From Escherichia phage AV116, in the sequence record OR352946.1: a stretch of 64,000 bases of DNA; one strand, 5' to 3'. Below the pieces are notes generated by a model, which was given only the letters and a program-made list of their open reading frames with translations, ran no database searches and was not told the origin of the DNA. The position numbers were made by a program, and so were the translations under genes. Positions within the stretch are counted from its first letter, which is position 1, and every line of letters begins with the position of its first letter. Below, piece after piece: positions 4,568 to 62,798 of this stretch.

Positions 4568-7279
4568 TCAAAAATCAAACATATCGAACAGAGATGCTTT
4601 CTTCTCGTAATCGAGTTTAGCTGCTGATGTGAATCCTTCAAGTGGTTTAATAAATGTCTTCTCAAGGAGAACAGTGTAGTCCATCCAATGAAGTACATCG
4701 TCTTTAATTAAATCTGTGATTTCAGTACCAGAAGGCCATGCGATACATTTATCACCGAATGGGTTTCCTTCACGTAAAGGCAGAACATATACTTTTTCAC
4801 CTTCTACAACTTGCGGTGCATCGATATTACCTTTGATAGCCCGGTTATACGTCAGAATTCCACGAATATGGAACGGGCATTTAGGACCAGGGAATCCACC
4901 GACATCATATTTAGCAATGTTATTCGCAGAAGATACCGACGCGATGCTAATATAATTCAATTGACGGAATTCTTTTTCAAACTCTTTAAAATATTCTTGT
5001 AATGATTCTTCACCTTCTTGAAGCATACGACGAATACATTCTTTAAGAGCTTTCTGTACTGCTTTAGGGGTCGAAGATTTCTGAGTCTCTAGACCCATGA
5101 TTTTGAGTTTAGGCTCAGCGTAACGAGTGCCTTCCATATCCCACACGTTTAATGCATAACGTTTCTTACCAGTCCAGAATCCACCAATACCTTTAGAACC
5201 GAGCGGAGGACCAGCGATAGCTTCTCGGTCCATGAACATTAAGTGTTGTTTATTGTTCATGTATTCACACATTTCACGGAAACCTCTATCAATAGCTGGT
5301 TCCATACGTTCACGTGCAAACTTATCTAAGAAGTCTACCCAATGGTTGGTATCACGGAATTTAGATTCACCAACCTTATCGATAATTTTATCAGCAGATA
5401 CGTAAATAGAGTCTGTATCACCATAAAGAACGAAAGCTTCACCTTCTGTACCACAAACTTCATTCAGATATTCATTAACTTTACGTTCAATCCACTGTAA
5501 AGCCATTTGCCCGAATGTTGTGATTGCAGTAGCATTACGCAAATCATAATAACGGAACCAAACGTTGCCAAGTGCACCATAAAGTGAGTTGATAAGCAAT
5601 TTACGGTTAATTTGTGCAGTCATACCTGCAACTTCAGTACGTTGAGCTCTAAACAACATTTCATTAAGAGATTTAGCAGACAACTTTTTAATCTTTTCTT
5701 TAATCTCATCACTGAAGTCGAAACGATAATCAACATCTAATGGTTCGTCAATAGAAAGATTAGGATTATGCAATGCCTCTTTAATTATTTCACCATTACG
5801 TTGAGCTGCAAGCATGTAACCTTTATGTTCTTTACGTTGATTAAAGACCTTAGTGATTTCAGTTGGAACTACACCATCACGGTCTTTATAATACATCATG
5901 CCGTTAGGAGAACAACTGTACACATCTGAAGGACGTTCAGCGATTGCGTTAATATAATCATGTAATGGAGCTACTTTAAACGTTCCTGCTATTGTTTCTG
6001 GGCTAATATTCACTTGGCGAATGATGCTTGGATACAGAGATGTAAGGTCGAAACTCATTACATATTTGTATCGATTTGGAATAGGTTCCTTAACAAAAGC
6101 GCCGGGATAAGGTTGAACCGGGTGAGAACGACCTTGTGGAATCACCTTGTTCTGCTCTTTAAGGCTATTAAAAATAATAGCATCCCATGTTTTAATTGGG
6201 CTAAACACAGATTGAATCTGTATCTTAGCATAATAACCCATGTCCAAGCTCAAGTTGATGAACTGACGCTTAGCATCAATTTGCAATACACGATACACGT
6301 CGATAATGTTATAAGAAATATATCGTTGGTGATTGCTTTCACGAAGCTTAGAAATAGGGCCGTCATATTTCAGTTTACCAACGTTCAATTCAAATTCTGA
6401 AATGTAATCCAGAGAATACGACGGTTGATTGGTAAAAGAGAATTTTTTGTAAAGGTCAATGTAATCAAGAACAGAGATACCGAACAATGTAATGATTTCA
6501 CGAGAACCATACATGTTTTCGATAACTTTAACACGAGTTTTACGATGTGGCGATAAACGTTTCGCAGTAGATTCGCCAAAAATATTCTTGATTCGGTTAT
6601 ACACATATGGAATATCAAATGACTCAACGTTCCATCCGGTTAAAATGACAGGAGTTTTCTGTTGCCAGAAATTGAGATATTCCATCAATAATTCTTTTTC
6701 GTTATCGAACGGCATATAAATGATTTTATCGATAATTTCAGATGGAACTTCATCACCACCTTGTTCTTGAAGCTTAGCAGCGATTTCAATAGACCATTCT
6801 TCTACATTACCATACGGAGAATTCAATAGATCAAATACGTAGAACCTGTCGTCAATTGAGTCATAATGGGTGATAGCATCAATAGGATGCTTTGCTTGTG
6901 CCGGCTCAGGGAACCCGTCCGGAGATGTTACTTCGATGTCGAAGTTAGCCACACGAATTTTTGTATGGTCGTATTTGATTTCATAGTTATAAGTGTCAGA
7001 CAAATACGCCAATTTGAAATCGTCCATGCCAAGTGCTTCAAGTCCGATATCTTCCATGCGTTTAATCCATTGGGAGGCATCACGCATATTAGCGAACAAC
7101 TTACGAGTACACGGCTTACCGTAGATATCGAAATATTTCGTAGCCTGACTTTCTGGACAATGAGCAAACAGTGATGGTTTATATTCTACTTCACGAGTAC
7201 GTTCACGGCCATTAGAATCGATGTAACGTTCAAAAATTGAATCACCAATCTGTTCAACCGTTAAGTAAAATTCTTTCAT
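4568..7279 (-). CDS. 43: DNA polymerase (family B) gp43
   Basis: 903 aa; recognisable T4 gp43 sequence with exonuclease and polymerase motifs (YGDTDS); flanked by regA-62-44-45 as in T4. Confidence 0.97.
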   Translation of the reverse strand: MKEFYLTVEQIGDSIFERYIDSNGRERTREVEYKPSLFAHCPESQATKYFDIYGKPCTRKLFANMRDASQWIKRMEDIGLEALGMDDFKLAYLSDTYNYEIKYDHTKIRVANFDIEVTSPDGFPEPAQAKHPIDAITHYDSIDDRFYVFDLLNSPYGNVEEWSIEIAAKLQEQGGDEVPSEIIDKIIYMPFDNEKELLMEYLNFWQQKTPVILTGWNVESFDIPYVYNRIKNIFGESTAKRLSPHRKTRVKVIENMYGSREIITLFGISVLDYIDLYKKFSFTNQPSYSLDYISEFELNVGKLKYDGPISKLRESNHQRYISYNIIDVYRVLQIDAKRQFINLSLDMGYYAKIQIQSVFSPIKTWDAIIFNSLKEQNKVIPQGRSHPVQPYPGAFVKEPIPNRYKYVMSFDLTSLYPSIIRQVNISPETIAGTFKVAPLHDYINAIAERPSDVYSCSPNGMMYYKDRDGVVPTEITKVFNQRKEHKGYMLAAQRNGEIIKEALHNPNLSIDEPLDVDYRFDFSDEIKEKIKKLSAKSLNEMLFRAQRTEVAGMTAQINRKLLINSLYGALGNVWFRYYDLRNATAITTFGQMALQWIERKVNEYLNEVCGTEGEAFVLYGDTDSIYVSADKIIDKVGESKFRDTNHWVDFLDKFARERMEPAIDRGFREMCEYMNNKQHLMFMDREAIAGPPLGSKGIGGFWTGKKRYALNVWDMEGTRYAEPKLKIMGLETQKSSTPKAVQKALKECIRRMLQEGEESLQEYFKEFEKEFRQLNYISIASVSSANNIAKYDVGGFPGPKCPFHIRGILTYNRAIKGNIDAPQVVEGEKVYVLPLREGNPFGDKCIAWPSGTEITDLIKDDVLHWMDYTVLLEKTFIKPLEGFTSAAKLDYEKKASLFDMFDF

Positions 7280-17130: not shown

Positions 17131-17358
17131 TCATTCTAGTTCCTTTGCTGCTTCAAGAGCAGCATCCAGCGAATCAAATTGGTCAACGAAATCAATATTT
17201 AACGCATCGTCAACCGTAGCATATAACCACCATTGTTTGAATTCGTATTCAAGAATAAATCCAGGACCTTCAATCTGAGGAAGACCTAGGCTATTTGTAC
17301 CAACTTCGTAACCAGCTAGACGCAGGTCATTAATCAAAGTTTCTGTTAATACGCTCAT
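17131..17358 (-). CDS. hypothetical protein
   Basis: 75-aa acidic ORF. Confidence 0.45.
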   Translation of the reverse strand: MSVLTETLINDLRLAGYEVGTNSLGLPQIEGPGFILEYEFKQWWLYATVDDALNIDFVDQFDSLDAALEAAKELE

Positions 17359-17687
17359 TTTACCGCCTTAACAATTTTCAGGTCAACGAATTTTTTCTTA
17401 CGTTGATTTTTCATACGACGGATAGTCTTTTCAGAGATTTCATGTTTCTGATAAGCTTTAGATTCGACACCAAATGCAGCAACGTCAAATTCAGAAAGAA
17501 TGTATTGCACTAGAATTTCACGAATAGAGTTACGTCCAATTTTCTGCTCATGTTTTTGCATGATTTCATAGAGACGATATTCCCAGGCGTCAAGAACTTG
17601 AGGAGTAACAATATTGCCGGATTCCAGAAGAGCAACAACTTTATCGAAAGCGAAAGAATTAACTACGTTTTTGATTTTAGTAGACAT
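17355..17687 (-). CDS. hypothetical protein
   Basis: Start set at internal ATG (MSTKIKNVV) preceded by GAGGAAAATAAT; track start 17726 lies inside the promoter repeat. Confidence 0.5.
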   Translation of the reverse strand: MSTKIKNVVNSFAFDKVVALLESGNIVTPQVLDAWEYRLYEIMQKHEQKIGRNSIREILVQYILSEFDVAAFGVESKAYQKHEISEKTIRRMKNQRKKKFVDLKIVKAVK

Positions 17688-17705
17688 ATTATTTTCCTCG
17701 GTTAT

Positions 17706-17754
17706 TTTATTATCCAATGAGAGCATTATACTCTGCTCTCAAGAGTTTGTAAAT
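17706..17754 (-). repeat. 49-bp exact repeat, copy 1 (early-type promoter with palindrome around the -10)
   Basis: Identical to 45512..45560; minus strand reads TTTACA-N17-TATAAT with GAGAGCA/TGCTCTC inverted repeat bracketing the -10. Confidence 0.7.
17725..17753 (-). promoter_or_regulatory. T4 early-type promoter (-35 TTTACA, 17-bp spacer, -10 TATAAT)
   Basis: Read directly from sequence; upstream of the ORF starting at 17687. Confidence 0.55.
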
Positions 17755-17756
17755 CG

Positions 17757-17969
17757 TTATCCGAACTTTTTAGCGCCTTTCCAGCCTTCGTACATAACTG
17801 CACAAGTCAGTAGCACAGCGTGTTGGCATTCTTTGTATTTGTAAATCCAGAACCAGCGTAAAAAGTCTTCATCCTCAACACCGTTGAGTTTCATGTTGGC
17901 GAAGAATTCAGCTCGTTCTTCGCGAAGTTTTTGAGATAACATAGATTCAGGATTCATTTTGTGTTCCAC
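17757..17969 (-). CDS. hypothetical protein
   Basis: 70-aa ORF. Confidence 0.4.
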   Translation of the reverse strand: MEHKMNPESMLSQKLREERAEFFANMKLNGVEDEDFLRWFWIYKYKECQHAVLLTCAVMYEGWKGAKKFG

Positions 17970-31601: not shown

Positions 31602-31630
31602 ACTATAACATAGTCCTATCAAGATGTAAA
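31602..31630 (-). promoter_or_regulatory. T4 early-type promoter with flanking 9-bp inverted repeat
   Basis: Minus strand GTTTACA-N17-TATAGT; GATAGGACT/AGTCCTATC arms bracket the -10 region. Confidence 0.5.
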
Positions 31631-31864: not shown

Positions 31865-32093
31865 ACATTTGCAATTCGGTGTGGGCGTCAGCCATCTTTT
31901 TCATAGCTCTGTTAATGTCGATGTCTCCATCTTCGCAACCATGAGCATTTTCCCAATCAGATACCGCATTAGCGTACTCTTCAATCAAAAACATTAACTT
32001 AGAAATTTTTTCTTTACGTGACATAACGTTCTCCTCTAGTAAGTAAGGTTTACTATAACACAACCTGAGGAGAAGTAAACTGATAGATGCCAA
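31845..32093 (-). CDS. hypothetical protein
   Basis: 82-aa ORF. Confidence 0.45.
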   Translation of the reverse strand: MASISLLLLRLCYSKPYLLEENVMSRKEKISKLMFLIEEYANAVSDWENAHGCEDGDIDINRAMKKMADAHTELQMYVNEIM

Positions 32094-32118
32094 AAAGCCC
32101 CGACCTTTCGGAAGGGGC
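32092..32118 (-). terminator. rho-independent terminator (GCCCCUUCC-GAAA-GGUCGGGGC plus U5)
   Basis: GC-rich interrupted stem followed by a T-run on the minus strand, just downstream of the ORF ending at 32126. Confidence 0.55.
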
Positions 32119-32125
32119 TAGTAAA

Positions 32126-34802: not shown

Positions 34803-35261
34803 CTAGATTTTAATCACTGCTTTAGAAGCTTTTCCTGGTAGTCGTTTACTGTTAATAATAGCCATTCTACATTGAAGAGTCTTCATTTTGAATGCCGGAT
34901 TTTCGCGACAAACTGTAAGTCCTAACCAAAGATTTCCGTCAGTTATTTCTAAACGGCCTGGGCGATATTCGACACCTTCGACAAAATCTTCATCAACATC
35001 CGGACGTGCCGGCATTGATAAAAATTCTGCAACTTCTTTAACGTGATTTTTTACTTTATGAAATAATTCAAAAACGTAATTCTCATCTATTTCTCTCTGG
35101 ATGGCACGATCTAAGAGATGTTGAGAATACTTGATATGAAAGCCTGGTAGTCCAAGAGACTTTGCAGCATCTTTTATACCGGCATTTATTTTGCGGAACT
35201 CCGTTTCAAAGATTCGACGGAGTTTATTACGGCGGATAAAAACATCCGAATTGATAGTCAT
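34803..35261 (-). CDS. regB: RegB endoribonuclease
   Basis: 152 aa; close match to T4 RegB (FIRRNKLRR.FE.EFR...HLLDRAIQREIDE.YVFELFHK). Confidence 0.93.
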   Translation of the reverse strand: MTINSDVFIRRNKLRRIFETEFRKINAGIKDAAKSLGLPGFHIKYSQHLLDRAIQREIDENYVFELFHKVKNHVKEVAEFLSMPARPDVDEDFVEGVEYRPGRLEITDGNLWLGLTVCRENPAFKMKTLQCRMAIINSKRLPGKASKAVIKI

Positions 35262-35322
35262 TTTGATTTCTCCTCTAGTTGACAGGTCTATAGTAACACA
35301 ACTAGAGGAGAAGTAAACTACT

Positions 35323-37344: not shown

Positions 37345-37647
37345 TTATTTACCTTTAATTACTTTAGCTGCTTCGATAGCCGCTTGCTGAAGGTCATCCA
37401 TAGACATACCAAATTTAGAAGCAAAGTTATCAATTTTCTTTTCGACAGCATTCAAAGGCTTGGCCTGTTTACCTTCATTAGCGCCAGGAAGAGCGAGAAT
37501 ACGCTCTTTGTCAATATAAAGGCTTACAAGTTTCTTACGGTCTTTATCGGACAAATCATGAAATGAATGGGCCTTTTTATTTATAGCGGCTTCTAATTTA
37601 CCTGCACTCACTCGCGCTTCAGTAATAAATTCTTGATATGTTTTCAT
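37345..37647 (-). CDS. ipII: internal protein II-like (capsid-targeted)
   Basis: 100 aa; N-terminal MKTYQEFITEA capsid-targeting sequence; resembles T4 IPII. Confidence 0.75.
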   Translation of the reverse strand: MKTYQEFITEARVSAGKLEAAINKKAHSFHDLSDKDRKKLVSLYIDKERILALPGANEGKQAKPLNAVEKKIDNFASKFGMSMDDLQQAAIEAAKVIKGK

Positions 37648-37710: not shown

Positions 37711-37971
37711 TTAAGCTTTACCGCCAGAAATAATTCCGAAGTTGTTAAAATCGTATCCAATATCGTCAACATCTACTTTAGGACTTACTACAACATAAGC
37801 AATTTCACTACGTTTTGCATAGGTGTTGATTTCTTTACCATCGCCACCTAAGAAAGAATACCCATTACGTTTTAATGAGCCAAAGTCTTCGGCATCACCA
37901 ATGAAAGCTTTAACTTTAAATTTAGGACCTTTGGCATCTGCTTCAGCGATAAATTCTTGATACATTTTCAT
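37711..37971 (-). CDS. internal protein with capsid-targeting sequence
   Basis: 86 aa; N-terminal MKMYQEFIAEA. Confidence 0.6.
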   Translation of the reverse strand: MKMYQEFIAEADAKGPKFKVKAFIGDAEDFGSLKRNGYSFLGGDGKEINTYAKRSEIAYVVVSPKVDVDDIGYDFNNFGIISGGKA

Positions 37972-38391: not shown

Positions 38392-38449
38392 AATTTCCTC
38401 CAAGTAGTTGATGAATGTATAGTATCAAAGTCCTTGGAGGAAGTAAACA

Positions 38450-38731
38450 CTATTTTTCTGAAGCGCCTGAAATATATTTTTCAAGACGCTGTTTCATCAA
38501 CGAGCCGTTCTTAGCGATTTCTTCCGGTTTATCGCACATACGCAACAATGCTTCAAGCTTAGCGATATCGCTGGTACGTTCAAATTTGCGAGTATCTATC
38601 TTACTAGCAAGTTCAGAAATACGTGCTAATAGACTTTCAGCTTCAACCAAAGCTGCACCTAGCTTAGTTGCAAATGTGTCAGTAGCTTCGTTAAGAATAG
38701 ATTCTGATAAAAATTCACTATATGTTTTCAT
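38450..38731 (-). CDS. internal-protein-like protein with capsid-targeting sequence
   Basis: [11 protein letters not shown]-terminus; ATG overlaps the lysozyme stop (ATGA). Confidence 0.55.
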
Positions 38732-40400: not shown

Positions 40401-41086
40401 TACCAGCCTTCCATAGGGAATTCCAGATAAACTTGAGCATTGACACGAATTTCATTGGTAATCTTTTTAACTCGGTCTGTATTACGAGATACACGTCCGA
40501 ACCAACGCCATCCGTTACTAATTGCACGAGAACCAGTGTGCCATGTTTGCCAATCAAACTGAAGAAGAGTACGATCTGGAGCTTCCCATTTCTCTAGTTC
40601 GCCTTTTTCGATTTTTTCGAGGACTTCTTTGTGCCACTGGCGATAGATAAGTTCGCCATCAGGAATCTGACTGAACTCTGCAGTTCCTGTTGCAAAATGA
40701 GTAGGACACACATCAGCGTTAACAAGACCAAGAATATGTTCAGACAAATAGCGAGGATTGTCATAGTCAGGTTGTCCTGCAGTAATAAAATGTTGACCAA
40801 CCGGAATATCCGGGCGTGGTACGTCATCATGGTGATAACCAGGAATAGCAGGATACCAAACAGGCATCAGCATGTGGACTCGTGAATCAAATACTACATC
40901 CGAGTCTTTCCAATCGTCAGGGAGATTTTGGATAAAGCTACGAGTAATTGGACCGCCATTATCAAAAGCAAAATTCAAATCGCAATTAAAGAACATAGGC
41001 TCGTTTTTAATCTGGTCATTTTTAATCGCATGAGCAAAACCACCTACTGCACGAGCTTGACTATTAAACACTTTAGAACTATTCAT
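40400..41086 (-). CDS. hypothetical protein
   Basis: 228-aa ORF preceded by GAGGAAAATAAT. Confidence 0.55.
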   Translation of the reverse strand: MNSSKVFNSQARAVGGFAHAIKNDQIKNEPMFFNCDLNFAFDNGGPITRSFIQNLPDDWKDSDVVFDSRVHMLMPVWYPAIPGYHHDDVPRPDIPVGQHFITAGQPDYDNPRYLSEHILGLVNADVCPTHFATGTAEFSQIPDGELIYRQWHKEVLEKIEKGELEKWEAPDRTLLQFDWQTWHTGSRAISNGWRWFGRVSRNTDRVKKITNEIRVNAQVYLEFPMEGW

Positions 41087-44895: not shown

Positions 44896-45489
44896 TTATT
44901 TCAAAGAGTTAATATATTCTTGTACATCAGCAGAAGTGGTTTCGACACCAGCTGGAGTGCCATTGAACGTTTCAACACGAGTCAGAGTGTCTTCGATATC
45001 AACCTTAGTCAGTGCAGCGATTTCAATTACATCATCAGCCGTAGAGATACCAAGGGCATTAGCTGCTCGAGTTTCACGAATGTATTCGAGTTTGATTGCC
45101 AGATTCTGACGAGCATCATCAAGTTCAACCACCTTACGAGCAATTTCAATTCGCATAGCGGCATACCCGTCAGCTTTTGTATTAAGTTGTTCGGCAGTTC
45201 GACGATACAGAAGACCAAGCTTAGCATGCATGGTAACATCTTGTCCTTCAGCCAAGAGCTTACGAATTTCACGTTCCTTAGAAGCGGCTTGCTTGTTCTT
45301 TTCATTAACAAGTTCGCGAATACGTTTTTCTTCATTAATAGATTTAACAGAAGCCGTTTTTAGTTCTTTGATTTGGGTAATCAACTTATCTGCAGCTGCG
45401 TTATACTGTTCTTCGACAGTCAGATTTTTAGCCATAGCAGTACCCAGTTTAGTGCGGATGAATTCAACAAGTTTTTTCAGTGTGTTCAT
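44896..45489 (-). CDS. coiled-coil protein (possibly PspA/IM30-like)
   Basis: Start set at ATG ([10 protein letters not shown]) preceded by AAAGG; long heptad-like helical sequence. Confidence 0.5.
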
Positions 45490-45511
45490 ATTATTACCTT
45501 TCAATTGGTGG

Positions 45512-45560
45512 TTTATTATCCAATGAGAGCATTATACTCTGCTCTCAAGAGTTTGTAAAT
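45512..45560 (-). repeat. 49-bp exact repeat, copy 2 (early-type promoter with palindrome)
   Basis: Identical to 17706..17754. Confidence 0.7.
45531..45559 (-). promoter_or_regulatory. T4 early-type promoter (TTTACA-N17-TATAAT)
   Basis: Same element as at 17725..17753; upstream of the ORF at 45489. Confidence 0.55.
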
Positions 45561-45787
45561 TATTTTTTAATCAAATTGACATAAAACTCGGCGTCTTCCG
45601 GGTGCATGCCTTCACAGTATTCTTCAACCATGAACTTCTTAACGGCTTCATAAGGACCACTCAGATTAAGCTCAGTTGTCCAGAACTTGGAATCTTGGGC
45701 TGAATCGATATGAACTTCAGGGTGACGGTTGCGAATAACTTCTTCTGTGTATTCATAATCAACGACATCAATACTAACTTTAGCCAT
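45560..45787 (-). CDS. hypothetical protein
   Basis: 75-aa acidic ORF with upstream GAGAGGAAAATAAA. Confidence 0.45.
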   Translation of the reverse strand: MAKVSIDVVDYEYTEEVIRNRHPEVHIDSAQDSKFWTTELNLSGPYEAVKKFMVEEYCEGMHPEDAEFYVNLIKK

Positions 45788-46412: not shown

Positions 46413-46449
46413 ACTTTGTGAAAAATTTATCTGCCCTAGATGCCCGAAA

Positions 46450-46470
46450 GCCCCAACCATAGGAAGGGGC
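46450..46470 (-). terminator. terminator-like hairpin (GCCCCUUCC...GGUUGGGGC family), weak U tract
   Basis: Same hairpin architecture as 32097..32118 and 47167..47188; immediately 3' of the ORF ending at 46490. Confidence 0.4.
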
Positions 46471-46489
46471 TTAAGTGATTGTAACTTAA

Positions 46490-47151: not shown

Positions 47152-47159
47152 TATTTATA
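47152..47159 (-). promoter_or_regulatory. T4 late promoter TATAAATA
   Basis: Plus tatttata is TATAAATA on the minus strand, about 35 bp upstream of the ATG at 47116. Confidence 0.55.
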
Positions 47160-47160
47160 C

Positions 47161-47188
47161 AAAAAAGCCCCAACCTTTCGGAAGGGGC
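47161..47188 (-). terminator. rho-independent terminator (GCCCCUUCC-GAAA-GGUUGGGGC plus U6)
   Basis: Hairpin 47167..47188 followed by a six-T run on the minus strand; terminates the tRNA-region transcript. Confidence 0.6.
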
Positions 47189-47231
47189 TATATACCTTGT
47201 CGGGGTTTCCACCTACTAGATAAGTGTTTGT

Positions 47232-47497: not shown

Positions 47498-47574
<77 letters not shown>

Positions 47575-48284: not shown

Positions 48285-48356
48285 TGGCCCTGGCTGGTTT
48301 CGATCCAGCTACCTATCAGTTATGAGCTGACAGCTCTCCCATTGAGCTACAGGGCC
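48285..48356 (-). tRNA. tRNA with CAU anticodon (Met, or Ile2 if lysidine-modified); CCA not encoded
   Basis: Manual cloverleaf: acceptor GGCCCTG/CAGGGCC, D-stem GCTC/GAGC, anticodon arm GTCAG-CTCATAA-CTGAT, T-arm GCTGG-ATCGAAA-CCAGC. Confidence 0.85.
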
Positions 48357-49682: not shown

Positions 49683-49994
49683 TTATTTTATGCCTTTAGA
49701 AGAAATGGTATTTTGGCGTTTAACCCCTGTTTGTGAAAAATCGTGGTTATCGATTTGGTCGACTCGCATAACACCAAATGCAGATTTAATTTTAGCCTTT
49801 GAACCTTTTTTGATACTAATTATCATATAAGTATCATTTTTCTTATATTCGAAATTTGTTACTTCAACGCCTTGATTAGAAATTGACTTAATAATAGCAT
49901 TAGCGTATTCATCATCTAACGGACCGGTGGTGTTAATAATAAAATTTTTATCGGCTTTAGTAGCTTCAGCGATAAACTCTTGATAAGTTTTCAT
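49683..49994 (-). CDS. ipI: internal protein I-like (capsid-targeted)
   Basis: 103 aa; N-terminal MKTYQEFIAEA; immediately downstream of 57B as ipI is in T4. Confidence 0.6.
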   Translation of the reverse strand: MKTYQEFIAEATKADKNFIINTTGPLDDEYANAIIKSISNQGVEVTNFEYKKNDTYMIISIKKGSKAKIKSAFGVMRVDQIDNHDFSQTGVKRQNTISSKGIK

Positions 49995-62774: not shown

Positions 62775-62798
62775 GGGAGCCTTCGGGCTCCCATTTTT
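62775..62798 (+). terminator. rho-independent terminator after gene 8 (GGGAGCC-UUCG-GGCUCCC plus U5)
   Basis: 7-bp GC stem with UUCG tetraloop followed by ATTTTTGT. Confidence 0.65.

Follow-up and report, generated by a model that had tools for sequence, protein, structure and literature searches.

The window considered here is the whole stretch of DNA that was analysed, 64,000 nucleotides from Escherichia phage AV116 (sequence record OR352946.1). It belongs to a T4-like phage of the genus Mosigvirus (PhAPEC2/RB69-like, RB69 group) and is about 97% identical to the phages G2285, PhAPEC2, and mogra. The early region is on the minus strand and contains gene 55, nrdH/G/D, 49, nrdC, tk, vs, regB, denV, e, and tRNA genes; genes 57, 1, 3, 2, and 4 come after the tRNA genes on the same strand of the window. 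The two tRNA genes, at 47501-47574 and 48285-48356 (minus strand), are tRNA-Arg and tRNA-Met, respectively, by comparison with mogra and RB69. Four small genes share their 5' ends (ATGAAAACATATCAAGAATTTAT..., encoding MKTYQEFI...; 37618-37647, 37942-37971, 38702-38731, and 49965-49994, minus strand), and we take this protein start to resemble the capsid-targeting leader of T4 internal proteins.

Two places in the early region carry the same 49-bp sequence, one at 17706-17754 (copy 1) and the other at 45512-45560 (copy 2). The genes on which the following account depends, all on the minus strand, are these:

17355-17693, minus strand: gene 55.2 orthologue, downstream of copy 1, with the Shine-Dalgarno (SD) sequence GAGG and its ATG at 17693; identified by tblastn to RB69 55.2
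17757-17969, minus strand: gene 55.3 orthologue, upstream of copy 1; proposed source of read-through RNA
44896-45489, minus strand: e.6 orthologue, downstream of copy 2
45560-45787, minus strand: frd.3-like ORF, upstream of copy 2, with its own promoter at about 45848
34806-35261, minus strand: regB, 99% identical to RB69 RegB; the nuclease proposed for the GGAU motif

The frd.3-like ORF has a promoter cassette on each side. The protein of the 55.2 orthologue (17355-17693, minus strand) is 85.6% identical to that of RB69, whereas its neighbours reach 96-100%, a difference that suggests a local mosaic adjoining copy 1.

The exact 49-bp repeat described in the first-pass annotation is indeed present twice, letter for letter. 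A search of the window for further copies found none with 3 or fewer mismatches, and 100 dinucleotide-preserving shuffles yielded 0; no such repeat is expected by chance. As given on the plus strand, the 49-mer reads TTTATTATCCAATGAGAGCATTATACTCTGCTCTCAAGAGTTTGTAAAT, and on the minus strand, which is the functional one, it reads ATTTACAAACTCTTGAGAGCAGAGTATAATGCTCTCATTGGATAATAAA. The earlier account had described a promoter with a 7-bp palindrome around the -10. The promoter stands, with its functional strand being the minus strand, and the palindrome measures 8 bp rather than 7. The parts of the two copies are as follows:

17706-17754, minus strand: copy 1, exact repeat; early promoter cassette (predicted) before the 55.2 orthologue
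17748-17753, minus strand: copy 1, -35 element TTTACA
17734-17741, minus strand: copy 1, 5' arm TGAGAGCA, within the spacer
17725-17730, minus strand: copy 1, -10 element TATAAT, in the loop and the first base of the 3' arm
17718-17725, minus strand: copy 1, 3' arm TGCTCTCA; the predicted start is its last base, A 17718, 7 nt past the -10
45512-45560, minus strand: copy 2, exact repeat; early promoter cassette (predicted) before the e.6 orthologue
45554-45559, minus strand: copy 2, -35 element TTTACA
45540-45547, minus strand: copy 2, 5' arm TGAGAGCA
45531-45536, minus strand: copy 2, -10 element TATAAT
45524-45531, minus strand: copy 2, 3' arm TGCTCTCA; predicted start A 45524

T4-type early promoters have a GTTTAC-like -35 and a TATAAT-like -10 some 17 bp apart. 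The motif TTTACA-N17-TATAAT matches the consensus at 11 of 12 positions and is, in both copies, the top sigma-70-like site of the surrounding 5-kb neighbourhood. The start site was placed by the standard spacing from -10 to +1, and it agrees with the 3' ends of Nolan's RB69 promoter models. From this predicted start to the ATG there are 25 nt for the 55.2 orthologue and 35 nt for the e.6 orthologue, with an SD sequence present on the same strand. Promoters of this type may have an A-rich, UP-like stretch before the -35; the sequence there is GATTAAAAAATA in copy 2 and the less A-rich GCTAAAAAGTTCGGATAACG in copy 1. A late promoter (TATAAATA) and a MotA box were also sought inside the 49-mer by inspecting the sequence, and neither is there.

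Comparison with related phages leads in the same direction. For RB69, the type Mosigvirus, 57 early promoters have been predicted, including Pe:42515 and Pe:72069 (Nolan et al. 2006, PMC1524935, Additional file 3). By position, these two correspond as orthologues to copy 1 and copy 2, standing before RB69 55.2 and e.6, respectively. The RB69 pair differs from the window pair in that there are 7 mismatches between its two members and that an additional ORF, ORF075c, comes before its copy 1 orthologue. The paper (Nolan 2006, PMC1524935) makes no mention of the dyad, and its text contains none of the words hairpin, palindrome, and symmetry. In the GenBank records of phages ATK47 and ATK48, the element is annotated as a host-like promoter. 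T4 has a homologue at 7215, before motB (GTTTACAAACTCTTGGGACCAGAGTATAATGGTCCCGTGGAGTATAAAATC), and the 5' end of the motB promoter is given in a figure legend as a reverse-transcriptase stop, obtained by primer extension from infected cells (Durand 2006, PMC1702504, figure 5 legend). The T4 motB promoter (GTTTACAAACTCTTGGGACCAGAGTATAATGGTCCCGTGGAGTATAAAA) has the same spacer and loop as the window copies, with arms that covary; it differs in its arms, GGGACCA/TGGTCCC, and in the gene that it drives, which is motB and neither 55.2 nor e.6. The consensus match, the position before an SD sequence and ATG of same-strand early genes, the RB69 predictions, and the T4 motB homologue all uphold the promoter claim, and they support the prediction that both copies are early promoters of the T4 type, which are served by host sigma-70.

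The inverted repeat within the promoter consists of two 8-bp arms, TGAGAGCA/TGCTCTCA, around the loop GAGTATAA, and its 3' arm opens with the last T of the -10. As RNA, the 49 nt fold with a dG of -13.8 kcal/mol (z = -3.6), and none of 200 shuffles gave an equally stable fold. Rfam returned no family over the 49-mer, either at the gathering threshold or at E <= 1, and the whole window gave only two tRNAs. A family of related promoters was collected by scanning IMG/VR with TACAAACTCT-N8-GAGTATAA, which gave 33 loci, and the orthologous 55.2 and e.6 upstream regions were taken from 28 further loci. This family is present in 2-3 copies per genome in Mosigvirus and Tequatrovirus (T4-type) contigs, where it stands before different genes. 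Its -35, spacer (AAACTCTTG), and loop (GAGTATAAT) are nearly invariant, whereas the arms vary together, in the following combinations:

5' arm GAGAGCA, 3' arm TGCTCTC
5' arm GAGAGAT, 3' arm TTCTCTC
5' arm GGGAGCA, 3' arm TGCTCC(T/C)
5' arm GGGACCA, 3' arm TGGTCC(T/C)
5' arm GGGGCCA, 3' arm TGGTCCC
5' arm GGGGTCA, 3' arm TGACCCC
5' arm GGGATCA, 3' arm TGGTCCT
5' arm AGGAGCA, 3' arm TGCTCCT

In an alignment of 17 distinct family sequences (alignment A1), the stem is paired in 98.5% of cells, and compensatory changes on both sides are seen in 5 of the 8 stem pairs. The covariation score is 0.472, as against 0.253 in shuffled alignments, a value that 0 of 500 shuffles reached. When the partner was slid by 1-3 columns as a control, pairing went down to 35-54%. 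All one-sided stem changes produce G.U or U.G on the sense strand, and paired cells number 134/136 on the sense strand versus 119/136 on the complement. The outermost stem pair is U-A in the window, U.G in NBG1, and C-G in RB69. A single contig may carry different arms (GGGGCCA, GGGGTCA, and GGGAGCA on one of them), and the arms that other phages have at the orthologous position before e.6 are unrelated, namely AGGCTCAT/ATGAGCCT, ATTAGA/TCTAAT, and GTGTAGGAG/CTCCTACAC. On another contig (IMG/VR 2706795394, L056), two family promoters lie 412 bp apart around one small ORF, at 403-428 and 815-840, with arms GGGGTCA/TGACCCC and GGGAGCA/TGTTCCC; this arrangement is a candidate PeSL-ORF cassette (PeSL, promoter-early stem-loop; see below).

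The suggestion of the first-pass annotation that the repeat is under selection is thus borne out, with 22 of 40 columns invariant across genera and the arms covarying. The covariation of the arms, together with the restriction of G.U pairs to the sense strand, argues for an RNA hairpin on read-through transcripts rather than a protein operator, and the inverted repeat, judged by its sequence, points to a selected sense-strand RNA hairpin. Since transcription from the promoter itself is predicted to begin at the final base of the 3' arm, the hairpin should form only on RNA that is read through from the upstream gene.

The 49-bp repeat ends with GGAUAAUAAA, which begins two nucleotides past the hairpin; the next base is A in copy 1 and C in copy 2. 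This yields two candidate sites for the RegB nuclease:

17705-17715, minus strand: copy 1 site GGATAATAAAA, an exact match to the consensus GGA(G/U)RAYARAA; +4 to +14 of the predicted transcript
45511-45521, minus strand: copy 2 site GGATAATAAAC, matching 10 of 11 consensus positions, with C at position 11

As RNA, the copy 1 site is GGAUAAUAAAA (11/11, with U at position 4) and the copy 2 site is GGAUAAUAAAC (10/11). As described in the text of Durand 2006 (PMC1702504), RegB acts together with ribosomal protein S1 to cut GG^AG/U; the consensus is GGAGRAYARAA, and GGAU is cut only with a strict A-rich tail. The same text presents the T4 motB leader, GGAGUAUAAAA, as a model RegB substrate whose GGAG is cut both in vivo and in vitro, and it states that T4 has 30 GGAU sites between genes, of which RegB cuts just two, at ORF 55.2 and at motB.2 (Durand 2006, PMC1702504). 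The T4 sequence at the motB leader fits the position-by-position description in that text. In T4, GGAUAAUAAAA, the same 11-mer as that of copy 1, occurs upstream of 55.2 and as the SD sequence of motB.2, and its occurrence at 55.2 is the positional orthologue of the copy 1 site. There are two GGAU sites before T4 55.2, and going by the statement in Durand's text on the strict A-rich tail, the one that is cut would be the one with such a tail. The T4 motB leader has GGAG where the window has GGAU, and in both the motif starts 2-3 nt past the hairpin.

The exact consensus occurs 4 times on the minus strand of the window, versus 0.61 expected, and 0 times on the plus strand; the other three minus-strand matches are SD sequences of early genes. 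With one mismatch allowed there are 9 sites versus 7.6 expected, that is, no window-wide enrichment. Within the promoter family the motif takes the forms GGAGAAUAAAC, GGAGUAUAAAA, GGAGCACAAAA, and GGAUUAUAAA, always 2-3 nt past the hairpin. The predicted promoter-initiated leaders are nearly unstructured (-2.7 and -4.2 kcal/mol, z about 0). Within the fold of the 49-nt read-through RNA, weak pairing of the GG of GGAU with C10 and U11 can occur, which would oppose RegB cutting on that RNA. We take GGAUAAUAAA(A) to be a likely RegB cleavage site in the window phage.

The pairing of a hairpin with this motif is also found elsewhere. In T4 (NC_000866, about 40786-40860) and in seven IMG/VR loci (L005-L011), an intrinsic terminator replaces the promoter before 55.2. 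It has a UUCG loop and consists of GGGCTTCGGCC(C) and a T-run, and it lies directly 5' of the same GGAUAAUAAAAU, with the downstream GGATAATAAAAT kept. In the window itself, a terminator between the e.6 and e.5 orthologues (44887-44870, minus strand; GGAGGACTCCGGTCCTCC and TTTT) is directly followed by GGATAATAAAG, the RegB-like motif that the 49-mer also has (44887-44855). The order of hairpin, few nucleotides, and RegB-type motif, as read from these sequences, recurs with or without a promoter.

Dyads are not confined to the 49-mer. A dyad across the -10, or one that reaches from the spacer to the SD sequence, is found at most minus-strand early promoters of the window and at many in T4. For 22 minus-strand early promoters of the window, pairing between the left half (-35 and spacer) and the right half of the same promoter has a mean energy of -11.2 kcal/mol, versus -7.85 kcal/mol when right halves are swapped among promoters (permutation p < 5e-5). 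Two layouts can be distinguished. In layout A the hairpin crosses the -10, as in the 49-mer and in the GATAGGACTA/TAGTCCTATC group at 31630, 42745, and 49682. In layout B there is a long helix between spacer and SD sequence, as at the regB promoter 35317 (13-14 bp) and at 38447, 37341, 32079, and 18880. In the regB promoter (window 35261-35317, minus strand), the spacer after the -35 is complementary to the SD sequence (TCTCCTCTAGTTG/CAACTAGAGGAGA). T4 has dyads likewise, at ipI, ipII, dmd, regB, denV, and other promoters, and spacer/SD complementarity was also noted in T4 at 62797, 65413, 53943, and 8218. Such a helix would hide the ribosome-binding site on read-through RNA and would leave it exposed on promoter-initiated RNA, a logic familiar from the late promoters of T4 e, soc, 49, and I-TevI and seen here at early ones. 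When sense and antisense dyad energies were compared over 47 window and T4 promoters, the difference did not go beyond a trend (Wilcoxon p = 0.067); hence it is chiefly the family alignment that carries the strand argument.

Two known systems resemble the element. The late promoters of T4 e, soc, 49, and I-TevI lie inside hairpins, in the 5' half of the hairpin. They and the 49-mer are alike in that read-through RNA folds and promoter-initiated RNA does not. The 49-mer is unlike them in that its SD sequence lies outside the hairpin, whereas the window promoters 35317, 38447, 32079, and 18880 do pair with theirs. The closer likeness is to the PeSL, which was defined in RB49/phi1 and has its stem-loop most commonly either between the two promoter hexamers or overlapping the -10 (Arbiol 2010, PMC2839356). 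PeSLs have since been extended to T4/PST and KVP40/nt-1 (Comeau et al. 2014, PMC4122927). Mini-circles that arise by recombination of adjacent PeSLs are a further trait of the published system. The PeSL and the 49-mer share a strong sigma-70-like early promoter, the placement of the stem-loop, tolerance of G-T pairs, and an SD sequence and start codon on the 3' side; both are repeated in hyperplastic early regions, at the edges of variable ORF cassettes. They differ in that the PeSL literature covers RB49/phi1, T4/PST, and KVP40/nt-1, whereas the window is of the RB69 group. Moreover, RB49 PeSL stems are of the G-tract/C-tract type, with termination demonstrated for one of them, whereas the window stem is of mixed sequence, without a U-tract, and is followed by the RegB-type motif. 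The marks of a PeSL at the sequence level, namely a promoter stem-loop, conserved structure, and a position at indel boundaries, are all found at the 49-mer. By its sequence, then, the 49-mer falls into a class that has been described before, that of T4-type early promoters or PeSLs, here with a likely RegB site in the leader. The window also contains near-identical terminators (AGCCCCTTCCGAAAGGTCGGGGCTTTTT) at 32087-32120, 46440-46473, and 47157-47190 (minus strand); the first two have an early promoter within a few bases (32079 and 46410), which is the order, first terminator and then promoter, that is classical for PeSLs.

The identity of the two copies can be followed among relatives. PhAPEC2 and mogra have the identical 49-mer at both loci. 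In RB69 and NBG1, locus 2 has the same 49-mer except for G instead of A at position 37, and locus 1 differs at 6-7 positions; locus 2 is nearly invariant among Mosigvirus lineages. At both loci position 37 is A in the PhAPEC2 lineage and G in the RB69 and NBG1 lineages, and this sharing of A37 or G37 within a lineage hints, as far as sequence can tell, at concerted evolution. The recent duplication or exchange suggested in the first-pass annotation is plausible in view of the loci being identical in the PhAPEC2 lineage, the 6-7 differences in NBG1 and RB69, and the lineage base common to both. We consider that the identity of the copies reflects strong constraint on almost every position together with probable ectopic exchange between promoter copies in the PhAPEC2-like lineage.

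Insertions in relatives fall at a precise place. In RB69 and NBG1, the ORF075c cassette, which measures about 295 bp and brings along a hairpin promoter, is inserted exactly at the copy 1 -35, flanked by TGTACAAC and TATACAAAC. In one contig (L055), a cassette with a 79-aa ORF (about 291 bp) is inserted exactly at the copy 2 -35, flanked by TGCACAAAC and TGTACAAAC. In their sequence, these cassette insertions at the -35 are the signature of PeSL modular shuffling. The earlier idea that the copies are recombination substrates holds in this local sense only, for the indels at the -35, and does not extend to exchange between the copies. Deletions between the copies were looked for, and there are none among 162 related genomes. 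Synthetic queries for the deletion junction (55.3 / 49-mer / e.6) and for the reciprocal junction (frd.3 / 49-mer / 55.2) were run against 162 Mosigvirus records, none of which gave a contiguous match. Genes 49, e, regB, and others lie in the 27.8 kb that separate the copies, and from T4 genetics a deletion of this stretch should not be viable.

Several other readings of the repeat have to be weighed. The palindrome could be a DNA operator, at which a dimeric phage or host protein represses both promoters, for example in early-promoter shut-off, whose mechanism in T4 is still called unknown in the literature; the overlap of the dyad with the -10, a common place for repressor binding, would suit this. 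The first-pass annotation had raised such an operator as a possibility, but the family argues otherwise. Arms differ between members within one genome, and unrelated arms occupy the same position in other promoters. Arm substitutions are compensatory and one-sided changes always give sense-strand G.U, which a duplex-binding dimer would not select. A repressor operator has the same half-site at all its sites, whereas here the arms differ and asymmetric G.T states are tolerated. We regard an operator as very unlikely. Scarcely better placed, and still improbable, is a role at the DNA level, in which the inverted repeat acts as a cruciform or single-strand hairpin and the copies are primarily targets of recombination or nucleases. 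Indel junctions do occur in or adjoining the element in relatives, and the PeSL authors speculated on a recombination protein targeting the stem-loop. However, the junctions are in the -35 box (TGTACAAC / TRYACAAAC) rather than the stem, and none of the 162 genomes has a recombination product between the copies. The tolerance of G.U only also means that the complement is often unable to form a matching hairpin (119/136 versus 134/136 cells). The least credible reading, to which we give almost no weight, is that the copies are identical for neutral reasons, a small mobile element having been duplicated or transposed very recently, with selection limited to the promoter hexamers. It would fit with identity that stops abruptly at both ends and with loci that are identical in the PhAPEC2 lineage only. 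Yet family members at non-orthologous loci and those of other genera retain spacer, loop, pairing, and downstream motif, locus 2 hardly varies between Mosigvirus lineages, and terminal repeats and target duplications are absent.

A more serious competitor is the original PeSL proposal, according to which the hairpin is mainly an attenuator or terminator of upstream transcription that insulates the 55.2 and e.6 units. In its favour are the reporter result with one RB49/phi1 PeSL stem-loop, which lowered lacZ expression as much as the rrnB T1 terminator did (Arbiol 2010, PMC2839356), the true intrinsic terminator at the same place in T4 and L005-L011, and the weak -10 dyads of the window promoters 15626 and 46410, which have a separate upstream terminator. 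However, the stem is only 8 bp, and the PeSL stem-loop tested in the reporter was of the G/C-tract type. The window hairpin runs into AUUGGAUAAUAAA instead of a U-tract and goes unflagged in the terminator scan. An intrinsic (Rho-independent) terminator was considered in its own right and rejected because the U-tract is absent, the tail being ATTGGATAATAAA and the hairpin not being among the terminators that the scan reports. Attenuation as the main role is a minority reading that deserves to be kept in mind, though we think it rather unlikely.

The reading that we prefer, and consider very probable, is that the two copies are T4-type early promoter cassettes of the PeSL kind on the minus strand, each with an RNA hairpin and a RegB/S1 site. 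Host RNA polymerase would bind TTTACA-17-TATAAT and begin transcription at the terminal A of the 3' arm, giving the mRNA of the 55.2 orthologue from copy 1 and that of the e.6 orthologue from copy 2. The hairpin would form on read-through RNA from 55.3 or frd.3 alone. On the promoter-initiated mRNA, a RegB cut would remove the triphosphate 5' end and make decay faster, and the RNA would then enter the decay route of PNK and RNase G/E, which has been described in a review. On the read-through RNA, a RegB cut would leave the upstream fragment with a protective 3' hairpin. A further proposal goes beyond this and is put forward only tentatively. The hairpin and the GGA(G/U) A-rich motif may form one processing module that sorts transcript classes, with RegB cutting 3' of the hairpin to separate the cistrons and the upstream mRNA being protected by the hairpin, while promoter-initiated RNA, having no hairpin, would just lose its triphosphate 5' end. 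Most T-even early promoters sit within such dyads, and some of the dyads pair with the SD sequence; taken together, early genes may follow a promoter-inside-hairpin logic genome-wide. So far such a logic has been recognised for a few late promoters only, those of e, soc, 49, and I-TevI.

Earlier publications already include the RB69 orthologues and the T4 homologue of the element. The novelty of the present analysis is incremental: it puts numbers to the covariation, brings out the asymmetry in favour of the sense strand, and shows that a RegB-type motif regularly accompanies the hairpin. With this assignment, two unannotated intergenic repeats of PhAPEC2-like phages would become the early promoters of 55.2 and e.6, and the identity of the copies is accounted for as well. 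The covariation, the RegB-type site, and the T4 terminator at the same place offer a testable handle on the role of the PeSL stem-loop, and they may bear on how T-even phages tell read-through from locally initiated early transcripts.
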